A program made the translations under genes and the position numbers. The notes under the pieces were generated by a model that saw nothing but the letters and a program-made list of their open reading frames with translations, was not told the DNA's origin and made no database searches. This document shows, one piece after another, positions 5,429 through 44,697 of a stretch of DNA of 64,000 nucleotides (its first letter is position 1; each line of letters begins with the position of its first letter). This DNA is from Saccostrea echinata (taxonomy: Eukaryota): the NCBI RefSeq assembly GCF_033153115.1, contig NW_026889796.1, positions 6,820,001 through 6,884,000 on the forward strand, in the 5' to 3' direction.

Positions 5429-5583
5429 NNNNNNNNNNNNNNNNNNNNNNNNNNNNNNNNNNNNNNNNNNNNNNNNNNNNNNNNNNNNNNNNNNNNNNNN
5501 NNNNNNNNNNNNNNNNNNNNNNNNNNNNNNNNNNNNNNNNNNNNNNNNNNNNNNNNNNNNNNNNNNNNNNNNNNNNNNNNNNN
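5429..5583. other. Assembly gap (run of N)
   Basis: Run of N just downstream of the TNF gene 1 stop codon. Confidence 1.
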
Positions 5584-5651: not shown

Positions 5652-8600
5652 TCATTCTTGGGTGTTACAACTGTAATCACCATGCAGTAGAGCTCGTGCA
5701 GGATTGATCTGAACAACACCAAAATAAGACGCTTCCGTATTAGTATAGATAAATGTAGGGTCTCCAATTGGTCTTATCATAATGTAATCATCACATTCAA
5801 GCTTGAACATCCCCATGTGATTCACTGTGTCAAAAGGATACTCTCCAACTGTTATATCGTAATATGCTTGACCCCTGGAACAAAACAATTAATATAAGGC
5901 GGATAAATGATATAATAATCATATTAAAAAACACTTTTGTTTATGTTTTTGAACAGGACGTTGACCTAGGTGCTATACACTATATGTTATCCTATTTTAA
6001 AAACTATGTCAGACAGGTCACGGGTTTATTTACTTGTTACATAATGTTGGTAAATATACATTGTCAGGAATTACAAACCTATTATCCTGTGTTATGTAAC
6101 TTTTTATCAAGGTCTTTTCGTTTCCACCATGAACCAGAACTGTTTCAAATCCCACGGATGGTTCGTACCTGTACATCATAGCATAAAACTAACATTTAAT
6201 AAACGCAAAGTACTAGTATGTGCGCATATAGTTGTAAATAATTATGAAGCAATTTATGCTACGTTTATTAAAAACTACTAGATCTTAGATAAAATCATTC
6301 TGAGATTTATGATGCATTCTAAGTTAATGTCAGTGTTTATAAATGGATTTGTTTACATATAAAATTGATCTCTTAAGTAAAAGCATCAAATGCTTTTAAA
6401 ACACAAGAGCCAAACAGATCAAAGCTCTTTTAATATTCATTTAAAATTGAACTAGATGCCAACAGAGCAGTGCTGTAAACAAGACAGATTTGAGATGGGT
6501 AGCAATTTGTTATGAAGTGGCACTGCTTTGCAAAAAGAACACCCTACCGAAACAGAAAGCAAATATTTCCTCAAAGTCTATTTATACTTTGGGGCATAAA
6601 TCACAAGTATTTGCATCAGAACAGTTCGTTACTATAGAATTAAAGCATAGTTATCGCCATAAAAAGAAGATAAGATATCTGCTTATAAATTAATAAACCT
6701 GTCTGTGTAAAGCTTCAAATTCATTTTTAGTATTAGAAAAAAGTACACACCAAAGGTAAATTTGTGTACTTCTGTACTTATTTACTTTTATTTTCTATTT
6801 AAGCCTTTTTTCTACATATAGAATAAAAATGCAAAAATACAAGCAGTACGAAATCGTGAAACGTCCTTGAAATGAAATGATCACGATAAACGAAGACAAA
6901 TTTAACATCCATTAATCAGACAGGTATTCATTGAATCGAGCTAATATTCTTAAATCGTTTCTCTTACTACATGTATTTATAAGCTTTTTGTACGATGGAA
7001 TAAAACTTTCAAATAACACTGTGTTGCGCTTTCTTAAGTACACAGTAGAAAAGCTTGATTATACCTACTGGTTTGCTATCATTCAAGGACCTTAACATAA
7101 AAGGAATTGTCCTTAGTTTTGTAAGTTTATTGTCAGTCTAATACATTTTGAAAATATATGTATGTTAAAAAGTCTCCAAGAAAAATATCATTAATTCCGT
7201 CATGTAAATTGAGTTATATATTACATGAAGATGTTGATGCTGAAAGATTTTTTGAAAATTATGTATCACTCAAAATGATACGAATGACTAAGTGGCCCTT
7301 TTCAGTCAAGTATGTTAAATTTGTTAAATGTTCGTTTTTAGTTGTTATTTTATTGTAAGATGGCATGCAAACAAAAAATCGTATCATCTTACAGCACCCT
7401 ATTTAAGTATGCCAATCGTAGCAACCGTAGCTATATCTACCCTCGCTCTGGACCGTTGACTGCTACTTGAGCATATACTAAATATATGCCTGGACTGCGA
7501 ACTTTGATAGCTACAGGCATATTGTAGGCGTTGTCTCTGATATAGTCAAAAGTGGAGGAATATATAGACTCCGGATCACTCCATCTGAAGCAGTGTTTCC
7601 TATTGTAGCAACCCTCTACAAAAGTAAGGTTATCAGTATAGACGTTAAACCGACAACTTGATATATACTAAGTACTCAAGAGCTTCCATACCGGAAGTTA
7701 TCTCTTGACATATTAGAATGTTCAATCTTTTCATAGTGAAGTCGTTTTCTAAAATTCAAACTGTCTATAGCAAAATTGTACAGCTTTGAAAAAGAAATTC
7801 AAAATGTAGTATTATGTTTCCTACCTATGTTATTGACGGGAGATTTAAGGGTGTCCTGAGTCATGGAGGAAGACATTGTTAAGTGGACGACCTTCTTCAT
7901 TATTCCATCTTCAAGAAAATTGCTTGACTATGATTGATTTTGACTATATTTAAAATCAAATATATCTAAATGCATCTTTAATTCTTATGAATTTGACTAT
8001 TTTTAAAATTAAATTACAAATATATCTAAATACATCCTTAATTCTTATCGGAGAGAATTTCAGAAAATAAAACATTAAGGCAGAATGAAATAAGAAGAGA
8101 GGGTTACCTTCCAAGTTTCGAATCGTGGTATTCACCAACTTGTCTGAAAAAAGAGAGAATTCAGTTATATTGAGACAAACCAGCCTGTTGAAATACTGCT
8201 ATTCTAGTTTTTTTCAATTATGCTTCAATTTTCATAATATATATAAGAAATATATATAGAGAACATTTCGTACTCAATTCTCTTTTTATTTCAGATAATT
8301 CTGCCCTTACTTGATTCCTCCATCGACCTGAAATTACACAAGGAAAATTATTTCCAAAAAAAAAAAATGAATGGGAAAGAGAGAGCATTACGAAAGTACA
8401 ATAACATGGGCTATACAGAAAGTTCTGATACTAAAGCAGTTTAGTATAACTTTTGATTTTTTATTCCTTCATATTGATGTTTTACTGAAATTTTTCGTTT
8501 CCAGTACTCGAATGGGACGTAAAACAACATACAATCAATCAATCAATCGTTTCCAGTAGGATAAATGACAAATTATCAAATGTTGATGACTGTCCCTGTA

Positions 8601-12332: not shown

Positions 12333-13791
12333 ATGGTTACTGTGGTCTTCATATTCAGGATTATTTGCTGGATTTACCTGGTAAATACCAAAATATGATG
12401 TATCACTCCCGAAAGAAATCTCCGTATTCCCCATTAGTCTTACATATATCATATCATAGCAGTAGAACTTAAACGTCCCCTGAGCAAGGACCGTGTCAAC
12501 TGGAAACGGTTTACTGTTTATATTCTGGTAACGGCGTCCTCTGGTAAGGAAAATATATGTAACTTATATGCAAGAAGAGAAAACAGTATCAAAGTGTTGA
12601 GTTAAAAGGTTAATTCAATTTGTACTATTCAAAACTACAGCTTATGAAGTTAATACTACCTCTGGTCCTGTGTGGCAATGCCTTTTGACAAGGTAAATTC
12701 GCGTTGTCCTCGAACTTGGACAATCTGAAATCCTACGGTTGAATCATAACTAGTGCTATAAAAATAAATTTATTGCATAAATTCTCATAACTTCATGATT
12801 TATTCTAAATTCAATTGCTTCACCTTATTCTCCATACACGTGAACAAAATCACGGGAATTTAAGTGGTTAAAAAAAAAAAAAAATATTGGTTAGCAAATC
12901 ATTTATTTTTTACCTCAGATCTGGCCCACTGATTGCAAGTTGGGCGTATACATAATATATTCCCGGACTGGTAATTTTTATTGCCACTGGCATATTGTTC
13001 CCATCTTTAATGAAAGTGAACGAGTCTTTGAATTCTTCCAACGGATTGTCCCATCTCAAACACCCTGCGTTGCTTGAACAATTGGCTATTGACAAAATTA
13101 TAGATATGAATGTATTTTGTTGGACTTTAAAAGATATTTCAGGTCAAATTATAAAATCGAATCAGTTTTCATAATATGTCTTACCAATATTATCCACTCT
13201 AGTGTACAGTATCGTTCTGTTCATGCTATTACTCATGGCAAGATGTGCGACTTTCTTCAAAATGACAGCTACATAAAATAGACGTTAACTTTTAAAATGA
13301 AATATCCTAGTATTAAGAAAAAAGAACAGGAATCATCAATACACAGAGCAATATGTGGATAGAAAAATACCTGTTAGTCTCAAGAAAGAATAACATAGAA
13401 TTTGGCTATATAAATTGAAGAAATTTACCTTTCAAAATTTCAACTGTACAATTAAGAGCTGCATAACCGTCTTCGAGGGTTGAAACTCTATTCCTTAACC
13501 CTGAACAGAATACAATGATAATTATTATGTTTAATGTATATTTATGTCTCATCAATGGCATATTTATTTTCAAATCAAGATGTACATGAAGTACACATTT
13601 GCATAGTATTTTTACTGTTTGATTTTCAGATCTAAGGGTAATGATGTTTTGTGAATGGAAAATTCTCAGGAATTTTACTGAATATTTGCTTATAAATTAT
13701 TATTCTGGATTGTTTTCTTTTCTTAATTATTTTACATGATTATTTTCTTTTTGTATACACCATATCATTTTTTAAAAATAAATTTTCCTTA

Positions 13792-17061: not shown

Positions 17062-17810
17062 AATGAAATATGGAGATAATGAACAGTATTCAAGTTCAAA
17101 GTCCATTTAGACAATACAAATTGGGAGCAGAGCAAATACGGACCTCCAAAAACATAAGAGGTGGGATCAGGTGCCATGGAGGAGTGAGCACCTCCTGTAG
17201 ACCGGTCGCACCCGCCGTGTTCTCCTTGTCATGACCGGGGAAAAAAAAGGGAAAAATCCGTAGACAATTCAGTGTGTAAATAATGACCAAAAAATTAGTA
17301 TGAAAAACGTCAGTCAGCATTTGACTTAATGATAGGTTGTATTTGCTGACAAGGTCATTGTATCAACCATGAAACTTCCAAAATGATGACTTCAGACGAG
17401 ACTGTTGATATCCTTTTTTCATCAACTTGTTTGTCAAGAGCTTGCCTCGTTTTAGAAATTGTTCATTTGTAGAGCATGCTCTTTCGTATCGAATCAACTG
17501 GGAGATAAAAACCCCATATGCAGGTGATAAGGGTATATTGCTACATAAGTAAGGGAAGTCGACGATTGAAAAAAATGAAGTCATCACGTTTATCATAAAG
17601 CTTTGTTTTAAGGCTACCATTAAAGTCTTTTTCTAGTAAAATATCCAAATATATAAACAGATATGTCAGACTCTGTGGTATCTTTTAGTTCAAGGTCACT
17701 GGGATATATCGAGTCGATATATGAATGGCAGTAACTATTCTTAATTAATAATATGTCGTCGATATATCTAAATGTCGAGTTGAAGGCCACAGCAAATTGT
17801 AATAAACTTT
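17062..17810 (-). mobile_element. Penelope-like retroelement, 3' fragment
   Basis: Frameshifted RT pieces (AFNSTFRYIDDILLI, FPYLCSNIPLSPAYGVFISQLIRY, LKSSF) and the same 3' UTR as the other two copies. Confidence 0.85.
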
Positions 17811-19304
17811 TGAAATGTGGTATCAAAATTTTTGGTCTACCGACATTCAGTTTTTGATACTTGAGACCATGGTAACTTCTACAACCTTTCTACGCACACA
17901 TAAAATAAGGAGGAAGAAGTAAGCAATATTTTCGTCTTGGGCCAGGTAAAAATTATTTTTTTTTCTCCATAAAAGTAGATTTTATAGGTTCCAAAACCTG
18001 TAATTTTCTGAAACCTAATACTTTCAGGAATTGAACAAAATCATTCTTTTTTTGTCAATATTTTCCCGTTTGTGCTTCACAGTGACATTTAACAGAAGGT
18101 TGTTTCCAGTGTAAAAACATCAAGTCAGTATGCCTTTTTCTGAAGATATATCCAGTTTTGACAGGCATTTGTCGAATGTTCGGTTTTGATTAAATTCTAA
18201 AGATATTCAAATACCATATCTTGACAATATAGAAAGAATTGAATAGGAAAAAATTAGAGACGCACTTGTTTATGCCACAAGCTAAAATTTTGAACCGCAC
18301 AAAATACCCTTCATAATGAATGCAGCTGATTAGTTTTACCTAATTTTTACAGAGATAATTGGATTTCAGATGATAGTAAAATGAAATAACTCCACATGTA
18401 ATAAATTCATACTTATCACAATATCTTTAGAAAAATTTTAATTTCGTAAAGGAGAGGGTGAAATTTAGAGGATTGCTTACCATTAACAGGTTTTGGGAAC
18501 GTCAAATGGACTACAAAGAAAGATCGATTTAGAAGCAATATTCATAGAGTTGGTAAATTCGTTGTGTCCTCACCAACAAATATGATCTCAAACTAATTTG
18601 TAAAAGCTTTTTGCTTGAATAAATAAATTTTGATTTTACTAAAATTAACAAGAAATATTGTTTGAATATTCAATAATCTTAATAATCAGTTTATATCTAT
18701 CTTGTACCCAATGGAAAAATCTCCAAAAGAAATAATTTATGTTGAAACCAATAGTTTTTCTCTAAAAACTTCCATTTTTTTTAAAGATAGGTGGGCTGCA
18801 CAAAATTTTTGTTTTCCAGGATTCGATTCAGACGCGTTTCGCTTTTTCGTTAGACAAACCCGTGTTTTAATATGAGAGATATTCATGAAGGTACCGGGGA
18901 GAATTGTTCACAGAGTCTTACATCATGCAACTCATTTTCAAAGACCACAAGGAAGGGGTTAGAAAATCAGCCAGTTTTTTTTTTTAAAATTCATTCATTC
19001 AATCAACGATATAAACAATACAAATAACAAGTTAAAGACAATAATAAATATTTACAACCATTACAAACCGTACTATTTACATTGAATTACAATTTTCATA
19101 TAAACATTACAATGCTGTATTTACAAAATAAATGTGAGGTAGAATTGAAGTATTTACACTTAATAAACCTGTTGCCGACGAATTTCTCTTCCTTTTTTCT
19201 AGGACTCTCAACACTGAGATCGACTTTGACTATGCCATTTAATGAAGTTTATATGATGTTTTGACAAATGTGGAAGTGCTGGAGAATTTGTTCAACAATA
19301 TAAG

Positions 19305-22300
19305 CTAAACAGTAAAAACAGCTCCTTTTTTGTTGAAAATGCCAACTTTAATCAGTCCAAAGAAAGATGCATTCGATGTAAAGACAGCTCGAATCCCAGA
19401 TTTAGAAATATGCCTTATTTCAATTGTATCATCTTTCGCTAGTTTCACCATTCCCATGGTAAAGCAGGATGTTTTGTCTTCGTCGTGCAACATCATGTTA
19501 TTTGAATAACATGCCAAAATAGGAGACTTATCGTTTCTTATGACGTGGTAACCCTGTGTTCCATTTCCCTTTAACGTTATCTACAATAGAAAATTCAACA
19601 CCGGTTTTTAGTGCAAATAAACCTGGGGAAAAACACTCACTTTATATATATATATATATATCAATAGTTTTCAAACAAATTATTATTTAAAACTTCAATA
19701 TTAAAAGGGCTAATTTTTAAAGTTACTAATTTTTGAAACCTGATCAAACTACATGTACATGTAAGAAAGTTCAGAGGTGCATTATTTCTAACATATAGGA
19801 AGTTTTATTTACCAAAGCTTTGCCATGTGCTACTCGGAATATAGTTAATTGTTAGCATTGATAAACGTAATACAATGATTACAAGCACAATCGATCTTTT
19901 CGAAGTACCTAAGACTCACCAAATTATAATAAATTTTATGAGTATATATCTTACTGATAATACCCACCTGTGAATACAAAAGATAGAGCCCAGATTGCTT
20001 CACTTTCAGTTTTCCATTAGGAAAGTCTAGCTCAAACTGCTTTTCTCTTGCTTTTTTTGGTTGATTGAAAAACCAGTCTGCATATTTAAACTTGTGGAAT
20101 GTTCCTGAAAGATTTTCTGTAAATGAAGATCATCCTTTTAGATACCATAACGAAAAAAAAAATCATTTTATTTAAATTACTTGAAACCATTGATACTTTG
20201 AGAAATCATGAAAACATTTTTCAAAATTATAAATTTATAATGAATTATAATGCAATGGACCAAAAACAGAGGGATTTTTCTCTCAGATAATCACTCTTTG
20301 AATAAAATAGTTTGGACTTTAATTTTTGGACAGCAATGATTGAGTGATAATAGAAATCTGTAACGTTTATATATTTTATTATTTGCAACACTAGATAAAA
20401 AAAACTACTCAGCGACACAGCTATGACAGAATACTTCATATTCTCTTTTGTTTCTTTATAACTACATTTTCCATGCTTCTAAAACAATCAAACAAATATG
20501 CAGGTTCTTCCCCAGAATTATAGAGTCAAAACATAAAGAAAAGGGGCATTCTTTTAACAAAGCTAAATTTGATTAAAAGGTGTGATTTTCAAATTTAAGG
20601 CAAGTATTACCGTCGGAATGGTAACCACCTCTCCCAGATGAATGCAAAGCGGGAAGCACAACATTCTAGAAAAATAAGGGTGACAGAATTTGTCACTTCC
20701 ATTTTATTATAAGCCATTCTTAATTCCAGCTTTAATGCAAATGTACGTATAAACCCCCTGCGCAGTAGCCATGCATTGCTAAAAATGAATGTGCGTATAA
20801 GAAAATGACAACACAAGACTGGAATTACCATTAGGTCTATGTTCGTCCTCACACCCAACAACCTGCAGCCCCGTTAACTACAAAAGGAAATATGACTAGA
20901 TTTACCGTAAGCCCAGTGGTCAACTGGTTCATTGCTTATTTCTACCATGCCCTCAACCTGGATAGCTTCTACAGTCTACAATTAGAATTAACCAGATAAA
21001 GTCTCAGGCTTGCAGCCCCGAGATCTCAGATTATCCCCGTATATTAATCTATTTCTGTATGGAGTTTGATCCAAATTGTCTTTATGTGTGATCAAACATA
21101 AACATGTCGACCATAAACAAATATTAAATAGTAAAAATATTAATCATTCTGATTCTAATTCAACTAAAAGTTAATGATTTTTACCTGTTCCAACTCACGT
21201 ATATGCACGTGAAATATGAAAACATCTTATAAATGCTAAATGATAAGAGTAAAAACGTAGATAAATAAAAATTGAATAAATAAAATGTATATAAATGAAA
21301 TATAAAGGTGGAAAATGCATAGGTATATTTTTTACCCAGATAAAAATTAAAAATATATAGAAATATATGATAGAACCTTTCCATTTTTCATCAATGTATT
21401 AAAACACTTAATATCGTCTCAAATATTCTTAAAGGAGCTTTAAATATAAAGGTTTCACGAACAAGACGTGTTAACTTGTAAAAGATTCCCTGATTTTGAC
21501 CAAAGCAAAAAAGACCTGCCGTGAATGGCATATTAACATTAACATATTTTTCAGTAATTGACCCTTTCCGTTGTCACAGTAAGAAATCATAAATTTCATA
21601 CATAATTTTCAAATAATAAGTTTCTTATTAAAGAGCTACACACTCTATGTTCTTTTTATATTCTTTAAAACGAAAATAATAATAATATCAGCATTGTATA
21701 GATTTGTTAAGTGATCCAAAGTCGTTTAGTCTGAAATTTTATTTTCTGCAAAATCTATTTTGGGTTATATAAAACACGAAAAGCTCAGTTACAAATCTCT
21801 TTCTCGTTAATATAAAAATATAAACTAAATGACTTTTACACAGAAGATTTGCACTAAAAACTTTGAAAAAAGACCAAGACATGACGACCTCACCCACTAA
21901 TAACAGGTAAGATGATATTAATAAATTAGTAATGGGCCATGCCCGTGTTAAAGATACAAGGCCATTTAACCGCTCTTTTACAATGACGAGGCAGAAAAAC
22001 ATTAAAAATAGGGAAATCTGTTATTGTTTGCTTTTATCCAATCATTTATTTGCAGAGTAACAGTTCTAAATTAGTATGTGATATGGTGGTATGCATTCGC
22101 CTCATACGTTATGTGCACTTTTATTTTGAAACCCGTGATTCAATATATATATACATGTATACAGCAAAACTTGTCTAATCCGGGCACCACTGGTTCCAAA
22201 GAAATTGGCCGGATTAATTAGACAACAGTCCGGATTAGACAACATTTTATACAAAGGATATTAATGAAAAGATTTTAAAGTTTACATCGTATTAGGCAAG

Positions 22301-25300
22301 ATTTTAGATTATACAGCATTATACGAGATTGGACAAGTTTCACTGTATACTGTACATGAACTTGGATTCATAGCCTCCAAAATCGACCAATAGTATTTGT
22401 GATTACAAAGCATGTTTCTTAGTTGCCATGAAATTACATTTGAAATAGAAAAAGACCCTTAAGATATCATACGTGCAATTTATTATACACACAGTCAAAA
22501 AACCAATTAAATCTCGCTGAAACAATCATAAACATAACTGAATCACACATTGACATTCATAGGTTGGTGCTTTTTTTGCATATTTTTTCAATGTTCCACG
22601 CAGATAACTAGAACATGTAGTTGTTTTTATCTACTTGTGGAAAATTTTAAACACTTATGTTGCCTTTTGGATACATAATTTGCGCACTGTCTACTTGAAT
22701 ATAATTTCATTGATAAGTCCGTCCCATCTTTAGTATATCTAATTCTTTTTGTCGCTTATCATCATATATGAAAATTACAATAAAAGATACACAACATAAA
22801 AATGCTTTATCTACACCCTTTAAATAATCTAAATTTACTTGAATTTATGCTGATTCTTAGAAGAAAGATGACTGAATATAATGATACATATAGATAACAT
22901 TTTTTTTTCGTGTTGAATATATAAAGCAATAGTAATAAATAAGCTATCATTATTTTTATTTAAACTGTTATTAAAACTATTGTTTTCTATCAATGTTTTA
23001 TTTACAAACTGTTCATTCTTAATAAATGAAAAGGGGAAAAATAACAAGGTGATCATTACGGTTTGAATAAAATGAAAACCATGATTGCTCAAAGTATCAT
23101 GAAAAAGTATCAATAAAATTTGTTAACAATTACAAAATGCTTATATTTACCCCTGGGAAAATCAGGATAACTTTCGCCCCCAGTCCCTTCAATATGTACA
23201 GCATCGATCTTAAAAATAACCAAAATATGTCTATTTCAAAAGTTAATTTTCAAATACATAAAAGTGCTAACAATGTATGCTAAAAATTGTTTCCATAACA
23301 AAATACATTATGGACAACAAATATACCATAATTTATTAACCTTAAATAAAAAATGTATTCTTCAATTGTGAATTTATGTTTAAAGAAGGTTTTGGTCAAA
23401 ATAATGGAGCTCCGAACAATTTAGATTTAAAACTAAAGAGCAATTTAGTTTTCATACACAATTTATACACATTTGATTTCATAGCCTCAGAATAAACATA
23501 ATTTATAGAGCTAAATGGCTAAATGCATCAATATTAATATCACCAAATAACAATGAATATGGTCACACATTGAAAAAAAAAAATCTTTCAGACAACAATT
23601 TTAAGAATATAAACTAATCTGATTACTGTGAATTTGAGAAAATCATTTTTCTTTTGCTGCTTTCTTTAAGAGAAACTTATTACCAATTCAAAATTAAAAA
23701 GAAATAATTATAATAACATGAATAGTAAATACAGCATATAAATGTCTGTAGTAAAAAGAATTCTTAGAAACCGATAAAAACTGAAAATTGAAAGACGTTA
23801 ATATAGGGGATGTGCAATTTTCTCCATTTTTGAAACATTCGTACACATTCTCAGGATTTATTCGCGAACAGTGTTTTGTTGATTTTCAAATCTAGTTAAA
23901 CTAAGTACATGTAAGTCTTAATATAAAAATTAATATTTTAAGAAAGAATTTCAAAATCTTCTTTTAATCTTCGATTTTAAAAGTCAACGTAAAACGTCAG
24001 TCCGAGACAACTCGACGTTAACTTTGAAATATATGTAGCGCAGTGTATATTACAAGATGTTTATTTAAATTTGTGACAGAGGAAAAGGGAAAACACTTCT
24101 GAAATGTAATTTCTTATACTGTTTGAGTACTGTAAACGTACTTATTTTAGTGGTAATAATATTTTAGCACTTTTGGCATTCCTTCTTTTCCGCTAATTCA
24201 TGTACACGCTAATACATGATTACAAATAATACATGTTTTAAAACTCAAGTGTGCTTATTATGATTGCGCTATTCAGATAGAGATTGTGCTAAATTCAGTG
24301 CTAATTAATGTACGTTTACAGACTGTTTTGGTGTCTAGTGTCTAGTTTTCAAAAGAAGAATTTTGCACGCCTTTATACAAAGTTATTAAAAAAACTGTGG
24401 TTCTATTCAAGATGTGACGTATTTTCTTGATTTTTTTTGAAGAAAATGTATTTAAAACTACCAAAAATGGAATTTGTAGTGAAATTGTAAATTTTATCCT
24501 TATCCTAAAACATTGAATTTCAGTGTTTCATCATTCAGAAATTTCAGAAGATTGTGTTTCTTTTTTCTCCGGATAATAAACCTTTCATAAGATACTATGT
24601 GTAATACTATATATAATTTTTGAACAAAAGAATTGTGAGACATCATTTATGAAAAATTCTGAATGCAGGAAACGCATGTTTAATTGCAACAATGAGCAGG
24701 AAAAAAAATCAAAGGAATAGCAAATCAGTTCTCAGAGTAAGCCAATTCTAGGTAATTAGAATCTCGAAATTCTTTAAATAGTTCAAAAATAAGATCTCTT
24801 CGATTTCTTTCATTTCTGGAGATTTCGTTCATGTTCTTACCTGTATTCATGAACACACATGGTAGCTATAGAGTAATTTTATGTTTGTATAATATCAATC
24901 TCATTGTTAGAACAATTTTCATCACAACAGAACGCTCATGGCAAATGAAGATATATGTTCAGGGAAAAAAAATCATGTAAATATTAAATGCAATTTAGTA
25001 AATACAAGTTTAAAATTTTTAAAATAGAGCATTTTTGCTAAAAAGACAATAAATTTCGCAAATAAGTTCATCGAGTACTTGACCCAGCCAAGAAGGCGAG
25101 ATGACATACAGCATACAATCAGATGTCCGAGTTCACTCTATAAATTTCTTCATCTATTTACATTCCGTAAAGGGTATTATAGACCCTCAGGATATGAACA
25201 GAAACAGGTCAGATTTTAAATACCCGTCTTGTTTTATACAAGTCTATTTTCAACTAGGAAGTTTATTTCCATTGGTTAGTAATTTAAACCAATTGAATCG

Positions 25301-26162
25301 TTGATATGTGTAAACATATGAAATCTGCTTGCTCTTCGATATTGTTAGATTCTATACATATTCGATACATATGAATTAGTTTTTGATCAAGATTTTAATT
25401 CAAATATTAAAACAATGCGAAAAAGATGCTTTCCCGGATTGAAAGGAGCATTATTTCGAACAATATAAAATTTTTTTTACAATAATTATTGACAATTTTA
25501 ATTCATGTTATAAGAATATAAACACGTCATTAAATTAATCTTTTTCTGCACAAGACATATTCCTGGAATTAAAACATGAAACTAGAAGTTATTTAGTTTC
25601 TGGAAATAAAACTAAATATTAAAGTCAATCCCATGCAATAAAAATAAACATGGAAGGGTTTTCTGGGAAATAAGGGATTGGGAATTATATTTATTAAGTT
25701 TCCACAATCAGTCTTTATTTACAACGTGGAGTTTGACCATTTCACTACAAGCTTGAGGATATTCTTAAGGTAAAAATCTTAACAAATTTTCATTTTAAGA
25801 AGAGCTCATACGTTTAAAAGATGATTTAATGAAACTGATTTGTTAAGGAGAATGGCATTTCTTTATTTACATATATCGGCTGATGTAAGAATACAAGAAA
25901 AATATTTCTAGATACTTGAGCAATCATGTTTACCGTGATAAATGATAAATTTATCTTCATCACATGTTGTGTTGTATGAATTAATTGGTTGGTAATTTCT
26001 CCTTACCTTTCGCTTGCAGCACGATTTGTGCCTGTGTTTATTTGGCTTAGTTTTCTTTCTTTTATCTGCATTTCGTTTTTGTCGGCTTTCAAACAACATT
26101 CCTTTGAGGGTGAAAATATGGTTTACTTCATTCTTCAAACTTGCAGGCTGAAAAAAATATGC

Positions 26163-42206: not shown

Positions 42207-44697
42207 TCACGTTTTAAGCAATATTGCTCCAAAGTTTGTGTTTTCAGGTTTAAGTATGACTGCTGTATTGGCTGTCAGGAATCTGATAGAGAGCTGACTA
42301 CCCTGCTGTATGAAGAAGACACCAGACACACTACAGGTTTTTCCTTTGGAGTACATAAAAGGATTGGAGGGGATAGATCTAACGTAGTCGAGGCTTTCTC
42401 GGCAGTCCAGCTTTCGACTGCTGTCGATGTAGATCGCTATGTCGTGTGATGATTTAGTGGCCTGGATCAAAACCTGAAGCATATATACGACAGAACAGTT
42501 TAATACTGTATCAGATGTAAAAGATGGAGGTTTATGGAATGGGAAAAAGAGATTGTAGAGGAAACGCTAGAACATAGAAGTTATACATGAAACACCTGCT
42601 AATAAGTACAGGTATATGATAATAAATGCAAAGACCAGAAAATTGAAGGTGGCAAAAAGTACATTAAAAAATAGTCCACACTACCACTTAAGGAATGTTT
42701 TTAAGTTTTGTGTGAGTTATTGGTGTGTAAATCACACAGACTTGTCACGTAGGCATATTTCATGAAACGCGCTAGCGCTTCATGAAAAATATGCCTACGT
42801 GCAAGTCTGTGTGATTTACACACCAATAATTCACACTAAACTTAAAAAAAAATCCTTATATTAACATTTTACATGTTCAAAAGCACCAAAAATATACTCA
42901 ATTTTGAATTATTCGCTGCCCTATATCGTTACATTTTTATTAACGTCTCTGTAGCTCATTGTAACGTCACTTTAGCGCGAGTTTCTCCGTGCATATTTCT
43001 ACGCGTGAGTATACACAAAAAAGGCATTCAAATCAATTTCACAGTTTGCTTAGTAGAAAAACAGCAAATGTAAACATTAGTATGTGGACTGGGGTTTAGG
43101 CCAGTGGATGATTCTTTTATCTGCTGACAGATAATGTTGTATGTATACGATTCGTTATCCTTCATATCCACTTTCTATATACTTACTGATCAAGGTAAAA
43201 GTGTCAAAACCTTCAAGAGATAAAGCTGAGCGTAGAAAATTAATTCTAGCTAGGTAATCTAGTTACACAATGTAAATGTTCTGATATTTTAATAATAAAC
43301 TGCACACAATAAAACAAACAAAAAACATCAGCTAACTTAAGCCATGAAGGCTGACAAAATGTGCGGAATTGCATGAGGAGATAGGGATATGCAATACCTG
43401 ATTATTTTTGCAAGAGGATTATTCATTATAAACTTATCACTTATCCTTTTTCCTAGAAACATTTTAAATTGCAATGATATGTACTTATCATTCTAACTGC
43501 TTATCAGTTGTTTAATTACATTAAGATAAAAATGTCCGACTTATCGAACACTAGGATAGACTTTCCAACTGGAAAACGGGGCTTTAAATAAATCAACATC
43601 AACAGAGAAGAATAATGTTTGATACAGAAATAACTACGCCACGGGGCTATGGAAGTTGTCACAAATTACAAGGTTGGAGGATGCAGAATCTTAATGCACA
43701 TTGATACAAGAAAAACCGTAAGCTTGCGTTGAGATACAAGAGAAACGCTACCTTACAATATCGATGAGATGAAAGAGATAATGTGCGCTTGTATTAAGAG
43801 GGAAGAGAAACTGTAACCTTACATTGAAATATGAAACTGCTTGCTTACAATGAGATTCGGGAGAAACTGCAAGTTTGCAATGAGATTAAAGAGAAACTTG
43901 TAATCTTACAATAAAATACAAGATGAATTGTAATCTTACATTGAGATACAAAAGATGTAGACCAGACTTAGTCACTGTGAAGGAACTTGTGTCAGCTTGG
44001 CTTTGTGAAAGAGGTTCAACTTCCTCAATATGCTGTGACTTCATCCAAGGTGAAGGTTTGAAGAATTTGACTCCATGAAGAGGATCTACAAAGAGTATGT
44101 GGATGGAGTACTTAGTATGTGAATTCTACATAACAAATGGAGACAAAGGAAATTATCATTTATTGCAACAACAAAGATGTAATTTAATAAGCTAACCATT
44201 TATCATAAATGTTTGGTTCGCGCAGAAAGTTCCTGACCAGACGAAACAGCAGGTACCTGGAAAAAAAGAAGTTAATAATTTTTTTTAAAAAAAATCACAT
44301 TGGATATTACTACCAGTATGGTTCAATAATTAACTCATGCAGTTATTTAAGAAGCTACTTTGATAGTTAAATTTGCTTCTGATTTGTTGTTACGTAACAT
44401 TTAATCTTCATCATGAGAAGCTTTCACACTGAACCAACCTTTGCATGTTATTCCTTGCTTCTGATAAATGTCGTGATACTCGTGTGGCACATAATGAACT
44501 GCAGTCACTCCTGAATTAGCCTAAAACAGAAGGGGAAACGGTAAAAATACATTAGCAATGAATTTTAATCACATATTTTTTTTCGGATTAAATATGATTA
44601 TCAGTTTCAATAACAGCATAATAATTAAACTTACATCATTGAATAATTCCAGACCTGAAAGAATCAAATAAAACTATTTGTGTTATCACTTCATTAT

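Follow-up and report, generated by a model that had tools for sequence, protein, structure and literature searches.

Two alternative exons of a TNF ligand gene in the oyster Saccostrea echinata, referred to here as C and D (3C and 3D in an earlier note on this DNA), are separated by only 28 nt. This raises the question of whether so short a spacer prevents the two exons from being joined to one another and, if it does, how much it contributes to the control of the larger exon array in which they lie. We addressed this question in a 64,000-nt stretch of genomic DNA (the window) that contains the entire gene, the parts of which are listed in Table 1. The gene lies on the minus strand and encodes a type II membrane TNF ligand of the Eiger/EDA-like kind. 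A hydrophobic segment of 19 residues begins at residue 29, within exon 1, and the stalk encoded by exon 2 contains a single RQKR motif (residue 111), which we take to be a furin-like site. The Pfam family PF00229 was detected in nine of nine proteins with scores of 40.9–44.6 bits (cut-off 23), and a protein record labelled Saccostrea echinata (P0029) is identical to the final 195 residues of the form of the window's ligand that contains exon C.

The array comprises exons A, C, D and E, which sit between the phase 0 donor at 26007 and the phase 1 acceptor at 20116 and all have lengths of 3n+1 nt. With sizes of 49–70 nt, a common phase and the same strand-A motif, the four exons agree in frame, length and region as laid down in Hatje 2017; their nucleotide identity, calculated with gaps and without a shuffle control, is 42–49%. 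The exon names in the earlier note imply a fifth exon, "3B", which we did not recover: scans for GT/AG sites and for the motif in all frames return four exons, and 3B is absent from oyster protein records too. One candidate for a fifth exon, near 21023–21000, shares 10 nt with exon D but contains a stop codon and lacks phase-compatible splice sites, and was rejected. A small G+C hairpin occupies 21002–21023 (minus strand), approximately 26 nt before the C acceptor, where it covers a branch-point candidate at −29; the 10-nt word that it shares with exon D is found at the start of that exon. When the genome was searched, neither the gene nor the array turned up a second time.

Table 1. Features of the TNF ligand gene, with positions in the window.
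Feature	Position	Strand	Remarks
Coding exon 1	26868..27134	(-)	Start codon and hydrophobic type II membrane anchor; open reading frame; contigs end at 26868
Exon 2	26007..26147	(-)	Basic stalk, phase 0 donor; joints from 26007 to A, C and D; loose ends to E
Alternative exon A	23151..23208	(-)	58 nt, phase 0-1, IDAVHIEGTGGESYPDFPR; joints exon 2 to A, A to exon 4, A to D
Helix I 5' arm (predicted)	23072..23100	(-)	Starts ~50 nt downstream of A donor
Alternative exon C (3C in the earlier note)	20906..20975	(-)	70 nt, phase 0-1, TVEAIQVEGMVEISNEPVDHWAY; strand 35-40 of model
C-D spacer, 28 nt	20878..20905	(-)	C donor, branch-point candidates (-25, -16), inner AG (-19), D pyrimidine tract and acceptor
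Alternative exon D (3D in the earlier note)	20829..20877	(-)	49 nt, phase 0-1, LTGLQVVGCEDEHRPN
Helix II 5' arm (predicted)	20750..20778	(-)	Starts 50 nt downstream of D donor; alternative local hairpin with 20739-20728
Alternative exon E	20611..20665	(-)	55 nt, phase 0-1, NVVLPALHSSGRGGYHSD; joints to exon 4 and short exon 4; exon 2 loose ends
Helix II 3' arm (predicted)	20248..20278	(-)	Duplex partner of 20778-20750
Helix I 3' arm (predicted)	20190..20224	(-)	Ends 73 nt before exon 4 acceptor
Exon 4	19968..20116	(-)	Phase 1-0; second in-frame acceptor at 20104 drops 12 nt; joints to both; Pfam TNF
Last coding exon	19305..19580	(-)	C-terminal part of TNF domain; joint 19968-19580 in 4/4 runs; Pfam TNF, weak alone

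The position of the exon-encoded peptide within the TNF domain emerged from alignment and from structure prediction. Across 72 distant TNF homologues the peptide falls on an A-x-H-x-x-G column block, with the C peptide A-I-Q-V-E-G aligning to columns in which A (50), H (63) and G (48) predominate. An AF2 model built from 87 sequences (pLDDT 84.4) places a strand at residues 35–40 and a lower-confidence loop up to residue 60, and supersedes a first model (20 sequences, pLDDT 55) in which the exon region was unplaced. The model superimposes on EDA-A1 with a Z score of 19.1 and an rmsd of 1.7 over 137 residues (model residues 32–186 on chain residues 247–388), and on the Eiger proteins of Drosophila and Spodoptera with Z scores of 16.2 and 18.9; in sequence searches of the PDB, matches stop short of the exon region. 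According to the model, each alternative exon supplies strand A of the TNF domain together with the following loop, and since each of them encodes this same element, exactly one array exon is needed per ligand.

All eight single-inclusion forms (four exons, each with either of the two exon 4 acceptors) are full length, at 289–300 residues, compared with none of the 22 skipped, double, triple or fused forms tested. Because all array exons are of length 3n+1, every double inclusion carries a premature stop, located 118–196 nt before the last junction; for an A-to-D join the stop is at codon 165, and for a C-to-D join it is predicted 157–169 nt before the last junction. Within exon A (23151–23207, minus strand), a shifted-frame ATG runs in frame into C, D or E, and two protein records (P0053 and P0107) begin there. 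An anchor-less ligand could thus in principle be made from RNAs that contain A plus another array exon; given that the main start is further upstream, the two records may instead reflect gene-caller behaviour.

That the C donor and the D acceptor are 28 nt apart, as the earlier note had it, is borne out by the sequence. Exon C is preceded by AG and followed by GTAAAT, the spacer (20905–20878) opens with GT and closes with AG, and all four splice sites of the two exons are used in spliced contigs. In comparison, the remaining gaps in the TNF gene span 163–2798 nt and the five introns of a neighbouring DM10 gene 143–277 nt, making the spacer an outlier within this small sample (n=12); our literature search found no oyster-wide figure for intron length. 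The further claim that 28 nt is below the normal spliceable size holds for free-living animals in the portions of two papers available to us (PMC13644364, PMC4165533), the former of which also describes introns of 22–27 nt in myxozoans and dicyemids, two parasitic animal lineages, and the latter precedents for unspliceable spacers of 14–37 nt. A distance of less than approximately 50 nt between donor and branch point serves as a criterion of steric exclusion in the available part of PMC5740500, and the entire C–D spacer, with its candidate branch points, is shorter than this.

The earlier note had further argued that the branch point of exon D must lie at or upstream of the C donor. Such a position is not required, as two UnA candidates, at −16 and −25, lie inside the spacer; others lie at −31, in the last codon of C, and at −43. 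An AG ending at −19 stands between the upstream candidates and the D acceptor, and is the first AG that follows those candidates. AGs less than approximately 12 nt from a branch point are usually skipped, so that branch points at −31 and −25 would be tolerated and one at −43 would not. With the branch point at −25 or −31, U1 and U2 would compete for the same bases, and with the branch point at −16 they would be 12 nt apart. Since every candidate puts donor and branch point less than 50 nt apart, the block would hold wherever the branch point lies.

We then turned to contigs from five public runs (X1–X5), which represent three samples from two studies and whose "RNA?" label is a guess. Complete tables of joints and deletions, obtained by small-window alignment, cover four of the runs (X1, X2, X3 and X5), and 15 of 21 joints are listed for X4; isoforms were not ranked by contig depth. 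All four alternative exons and both exon 4 acceptors are used. Joints from C to exon 4 and from D to exon 4 occur in every run, exon 2 is connected to C in four of the five (as joints in X1 and X4, and as loose ends in X1, X2 and X5), and exon 2 is joined to D in four (X1, X3, X4 and X5). Exons C and D are thus each connected to the constant exon on either side while their partner is skipped, and their splice sites are not chance GT/AG pairs; although the label of the runs is a guess, the joints coincide exactly with GT..AG sites.

Neither a C-to-D joint nor a deletion of the 28-nt spacer is present in the contigs of any of the four runs with complete tables, which come from two studies. The assertion in the earlier note that C and D cannot be joined thus draws support from their alternative use, from the missing joint and from the shortness of the spacer, but joints from C to E (240-nt gap) and from D to E (163-nt gap) are likewise missing from the same four runs. 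Moreover, contigs lose rare forms, so that the missing C-to-D joint is weak evidence, and the argument from size is the stronger of the two. Double inclusion of A and D was detected in three of the five runs (X1, X4 and X5), indicating that out-of-frame double joins are detectable in these contigs. This last observation bears on the alternative that splicing does remove the 28-nt intron, at a low rate, and that the resulting RNA is then destroyed or dropped by the assembler, an account that could appeal to the premature stop predicted for a C-to-D join, to the loss of rare forms from contigs and to the very short introns of myxozoans and dicyemids (PMC13644364). We give it almost no credence, as A plus D has a similar stop yet remains visible, the other introns here are at least 143 nt long, and the C. 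elegans spacers of 14 and 30 nt described in the available part of PMC4165533 were never seen excised.

Contigs do run through the C–D spacer in three of the four runs (X1, X2 and X3), and X2 lists exon D solely as joined at its 5' side through the spacer, with no exon 2-to-D contig listed. It could be argued on these grounds that the splicing machinery also treats C, spacer and D as a single 147-nt exon, with C and D representing alternative 5' and 3' sites and the fused form, which has a stop at codon 170, acting as a regulated off-switch. We regard this as very unlikely. Unspliced flanking introns are present in the same runs, and intermediates would account for the read-through contigs; X5, which is without intron cover, has no spacer read-through among the pieces listed; and contigs cannot phase both ends of such an exon. 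Among the observations that the earlier note had named as telling against its proposal, excision of the spacer was found in none of four runs, disuse of the exons is contradicted by the splicing of both, and the longer exon survives as a possible by-product in three of four runs.

The analogy drawn in the earlier note was with exons 2 and 3 of alpha-tropomyosin (Tpm1), and although the mechanism is indeed known the match is a loose one, with let-2 and egl-15 of C. elegans being closer. The intron between exons 2 and 3 of Tpm1 is longer than the spacer studied here. In the part of PMC10570038 available to us the Tpm1 branch point lies 41 nt from the donor; both genes thus have a donor too near the next branch point, through a distant branch point in Tpm1 and through an entire spacer of 28 nt in the oyster. 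According to the available part of PMC4165533, five C. elegans genes (let-2, egl-15, bet-2, gly-5 and gly-6) have, like C and D, adjacent alternative exons that are separated by a spacer shorter than a minimal intron and have not been seen joined, the spacers of let-2 exons 9/10 (30 nt) and egl-15 exons 5B/5A (14 nt) among them. The same source describes these clusters as consisting of 3n exons (PMC4165533), whereas in the oyster the exons have lengths of 3n+1 and the block concerns a single pair in an array of four. We consider a steric block between C and D itself to be highly probable.

Taken as a whole, the array leaks: A–D joins occur and give premature stops. The earlier note took the spacer as independent support for splicing control of the array, which is an overstatement given that the spacer governs one of six exon pairs and that A-to-D joins are seen; the array-wide inference goes too far, given both this leakage and the penalty that the frame already places on double inclusion. 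Joining contigs are present only where the frame shifts (A to D), as Hatje 2017 permits. Oyster protein records also contain frame-shifted peptides that correspond to A plus C (8 records), A plus D (4), D plus E (4) and A plus E (1), and none that correspond to C plus D or to C plus E; these counts come from the 94 of 109 oyster records with the exon 4 motif, 15 without it being set aside, and include redundant records. Protein records show C plus D poorly, as the shifted frame of C contains stops. Putative nonsense-mediated decay probably removes the leaked forms, although the ease with which A–D contigs are seen argues against decay.

These leaks also favor the view that the spacer is short by chance, through neutral deletion of an intron that was not needed, with splice-site competition and proteins choosing the exon and with frameshift and decay cleaning up afterwards. 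Double inclusions already carry a premature stop in this gene, as all of the exons are 3n+1, and the five steric clusters of C. elegans are all 3n, so that decay is no help there (PMC4165533, in the part available); the oyster block would be redundant for protein output. We nevertheless think this view unlikely. It disputes the purpose of the spacer only, and not that the spacer blocks joining, and it does not account for a 19/20 inverted pair, unique in the genome, whose halves lie next to the A donor and the exon 4 acceptor.

That inverted pair (23099–23080 with 20210–20191) forms the core of the first of two predicted long-range intron helices that flank looped-out exons; the earlier note had suggested RNA folding of the introns as a way to look for docking/selector pairings. 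A search pattern for helix I that allowed one N and one mismatch matched two places in the 923-Mb genome, both of them here, and hence the pair is not a repeat. Helix I has a predicted energy of −27.9 kcal/mol that was reached in none of 300 shuffles by either method in a restricted test; in a wide, unrestricted scan it is the top helix and was equalled by 9 of 300 shuffles. Helix II (−25.1 kcal/mol) was likewise reached in none of 300 shuffles by either method in the restricted test, is absent from the top matches of the unrestricted scan, and in an equilibrium fold of the whole region has a probability of ~0.07, as against ~0.8 for the local hairpin. The region for the restricted test was picked after helix I was known, and six regions were tested in all, in four of which pairing was not significant (8, 57, 83 and 86 of 100 shuffles). 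All 22 variant sites in the intron between E and exon 4 lie outside the two 3' arms, which together take up 66 nt (P 0.043).

The arms of helices I and II are separate and nested, rather than forming one shared docking site with competing selectors. The only other strong partner found for the 3' arm of helix I is a repeat-derived stretch near 22395, an extension of the helix overlap amounts to only −8.8 kcal/mol, and no helix was found for exon E. An inverted pair at 20725–20698/20259–20232 was rejected as being at chance level (reached by 297 of 300 shuffles). Repeat-like intron stretches lie at 22157–22350, with inverted ends of 24 nt, and at 24131–24321, and many contigs from elsewhere align on both.

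We consider it probable that C and D are two of four duplicated strand-A exons, that the spacer blocks their joining, and that the array is policed in layers. In the first layer, the C donor and the branch point and acceptor of D would not be occupied together, and joining of C to D would be blocked. In the second, helix I would bring A to exon 4 by looping out C, D and E, favoring A, and helix II would loop out E and bring C or D to exon 4, favoring one of these two. Helix II cannot tell C from D, so we infer that the pair would need the spacer to settle the choice. In the third, frameshift and putative nonsense-mediated decay would clear leaked double forms. The outcome would be eight ligand forms with different surface loops. 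At Dscam exon 17, steric hindrance reportedly acts together with RNA structure. In the insect docking clusters of 14-3-3zeta, Mhc, MRP1 and Dscam exons 4, 9 and 17, helices join sequence downstream of the variable exon to the intron before the constant exon, and the oyster helices are predicted to be arranged alike; as far as the available part of the source goes (PMC6071210), the oyster gene differs in that its helices are nested with separate 3' arms, none was found for E, and exclusion is leaky.

The swapped segment may bear on receptor contact. In the structure of EDA bound to EDAR, EDA residues 256–265 belong to the main contact patch (PMC9918506, in the part available), and these residues appear by range to fall within the swapped segment, as judged from the modelled superposition and without residue-level alignment. 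Human EDA-A1/EDA-A2 is also the closest solved fold, and in both genes splicing alters the TNF domain of a ligand; in EDA two residues (307–308) differ and receptor switching is proven, whereas in the oyster a strand and loop are replaced four ways, with or without four further residues (PMC9918506). The Eiger proteins of Drosophila and Spodoptera are likewise type II membrane TNF ligands, but the available portions of the two reports describe no strand-A exon array (PMC8024323, PMC6684607), and the Eiger receptor contacts lie outside the swapped loop, the key residues for Grindelwald in Drosophila being 337, 388–391 and 396–401, outside the N-terminal loop (PMC8024323). Our prediction from the model is that eight ligand forms differing in a surface loop would likely differ in receptor affinity or choice.

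Five oyster species (S. cucullata, C. gigas, C. angulata, C. virginica and O. edulis) each have annotations for all eight isoforms, and relatives carry the name "protein eiger-like". The best match outside oysters is a Mytilus gene with three alternative peptides at the same place, one of them clearly A-like, and with the variant that has or lacks four residues; the four-residue variant was also seen in two records of a scallop gene. We infer from search rank, and not from a tree, that the Mytilus and scallop genes are orthologous. A more tentative proposal is that oysters and mussels diversify one TNF ligand into receptor-selective cytokines by means of an old strand-A/loop exon array, with a three-layer switch in oysters in which helices would pick A versus C/D versus E and the spacer C versus D; this is possible, but we hold it with little confidence.

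We found no description of this array in a TNF ligand in the literature, although papers on the oyster TNF repertoire beyond the open literature could cover it; the available parts of bioRxiv 10.1101/2024.07.27.603686 and PMC11869874 (the latter on a different gene) contain no splicing content. The steric mechanism is already known, and what appears to be new is the setting, a four-exon array in a TNF ligand, whose isoforms are unnamed in public annotations. The setting is unexpected: the gene encodes neither a receptor nor a channel but a cytokine ligand, in which a core strand together with a surface loop is exchanged four ways, an arrangement found in five oyster species and with an echo in mussels. 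Should the forms use receptors differently, the array would be a larger version of the EDA-A1/A2 switch, molluscs would have widened TNF signalling without gene duplication, and isoform-blind studies of oyster TNF expression would average different ligands. At ~3 kb, the locus also offers a compact system for studying the division of labour between steric block, RNA pairing and decay in a single array.

A neighbouring TNF gene has one candidate strand-A exon (39377–39329, minus strand; 49 nt, phase 0-1, A-H-F motif) and no array was seen in it; the single such exon suggests an origin of the array from one exon through tandem duplication. Approximately five TNF-ligand-like genes form a tandem cluster at 5655–45584 (minus strand), with Pfam TNF E values of 4e-6 to 0.04 for the last exons at 42566, 37630, 19580 and 5888 and no match for that at 12563. 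A Pinctada gene model (P0119) fuses part of the relative of this gene to a protein resembling that of the final TNF gene in the window, which hints at a kept gene order, and in amphioxus three isoforms (P0226, P0228 and P0229) vary by inserts in the same loop. Upstream of exon 1, an open frame at 27624–27893 (minus strand) looks, on visual comparison, like the N-termini of the O. edulis X10 (P0020) and C. virginica X2/X3 records, which hints at an alternative first exon without a membrane anchor. Elsewhere in the window are a BTB-BACK (kelch-like) gene at 48087–52699 (minus strand), the DM10-domain gene at 54850–59318 (plus strand), a run of N at 5429–5583 (155 nt), and three related open frames (31686–32356, 17099–17889 and 2162–2428) that by eye resemble reverse-transcriptase fragments of retroelements.
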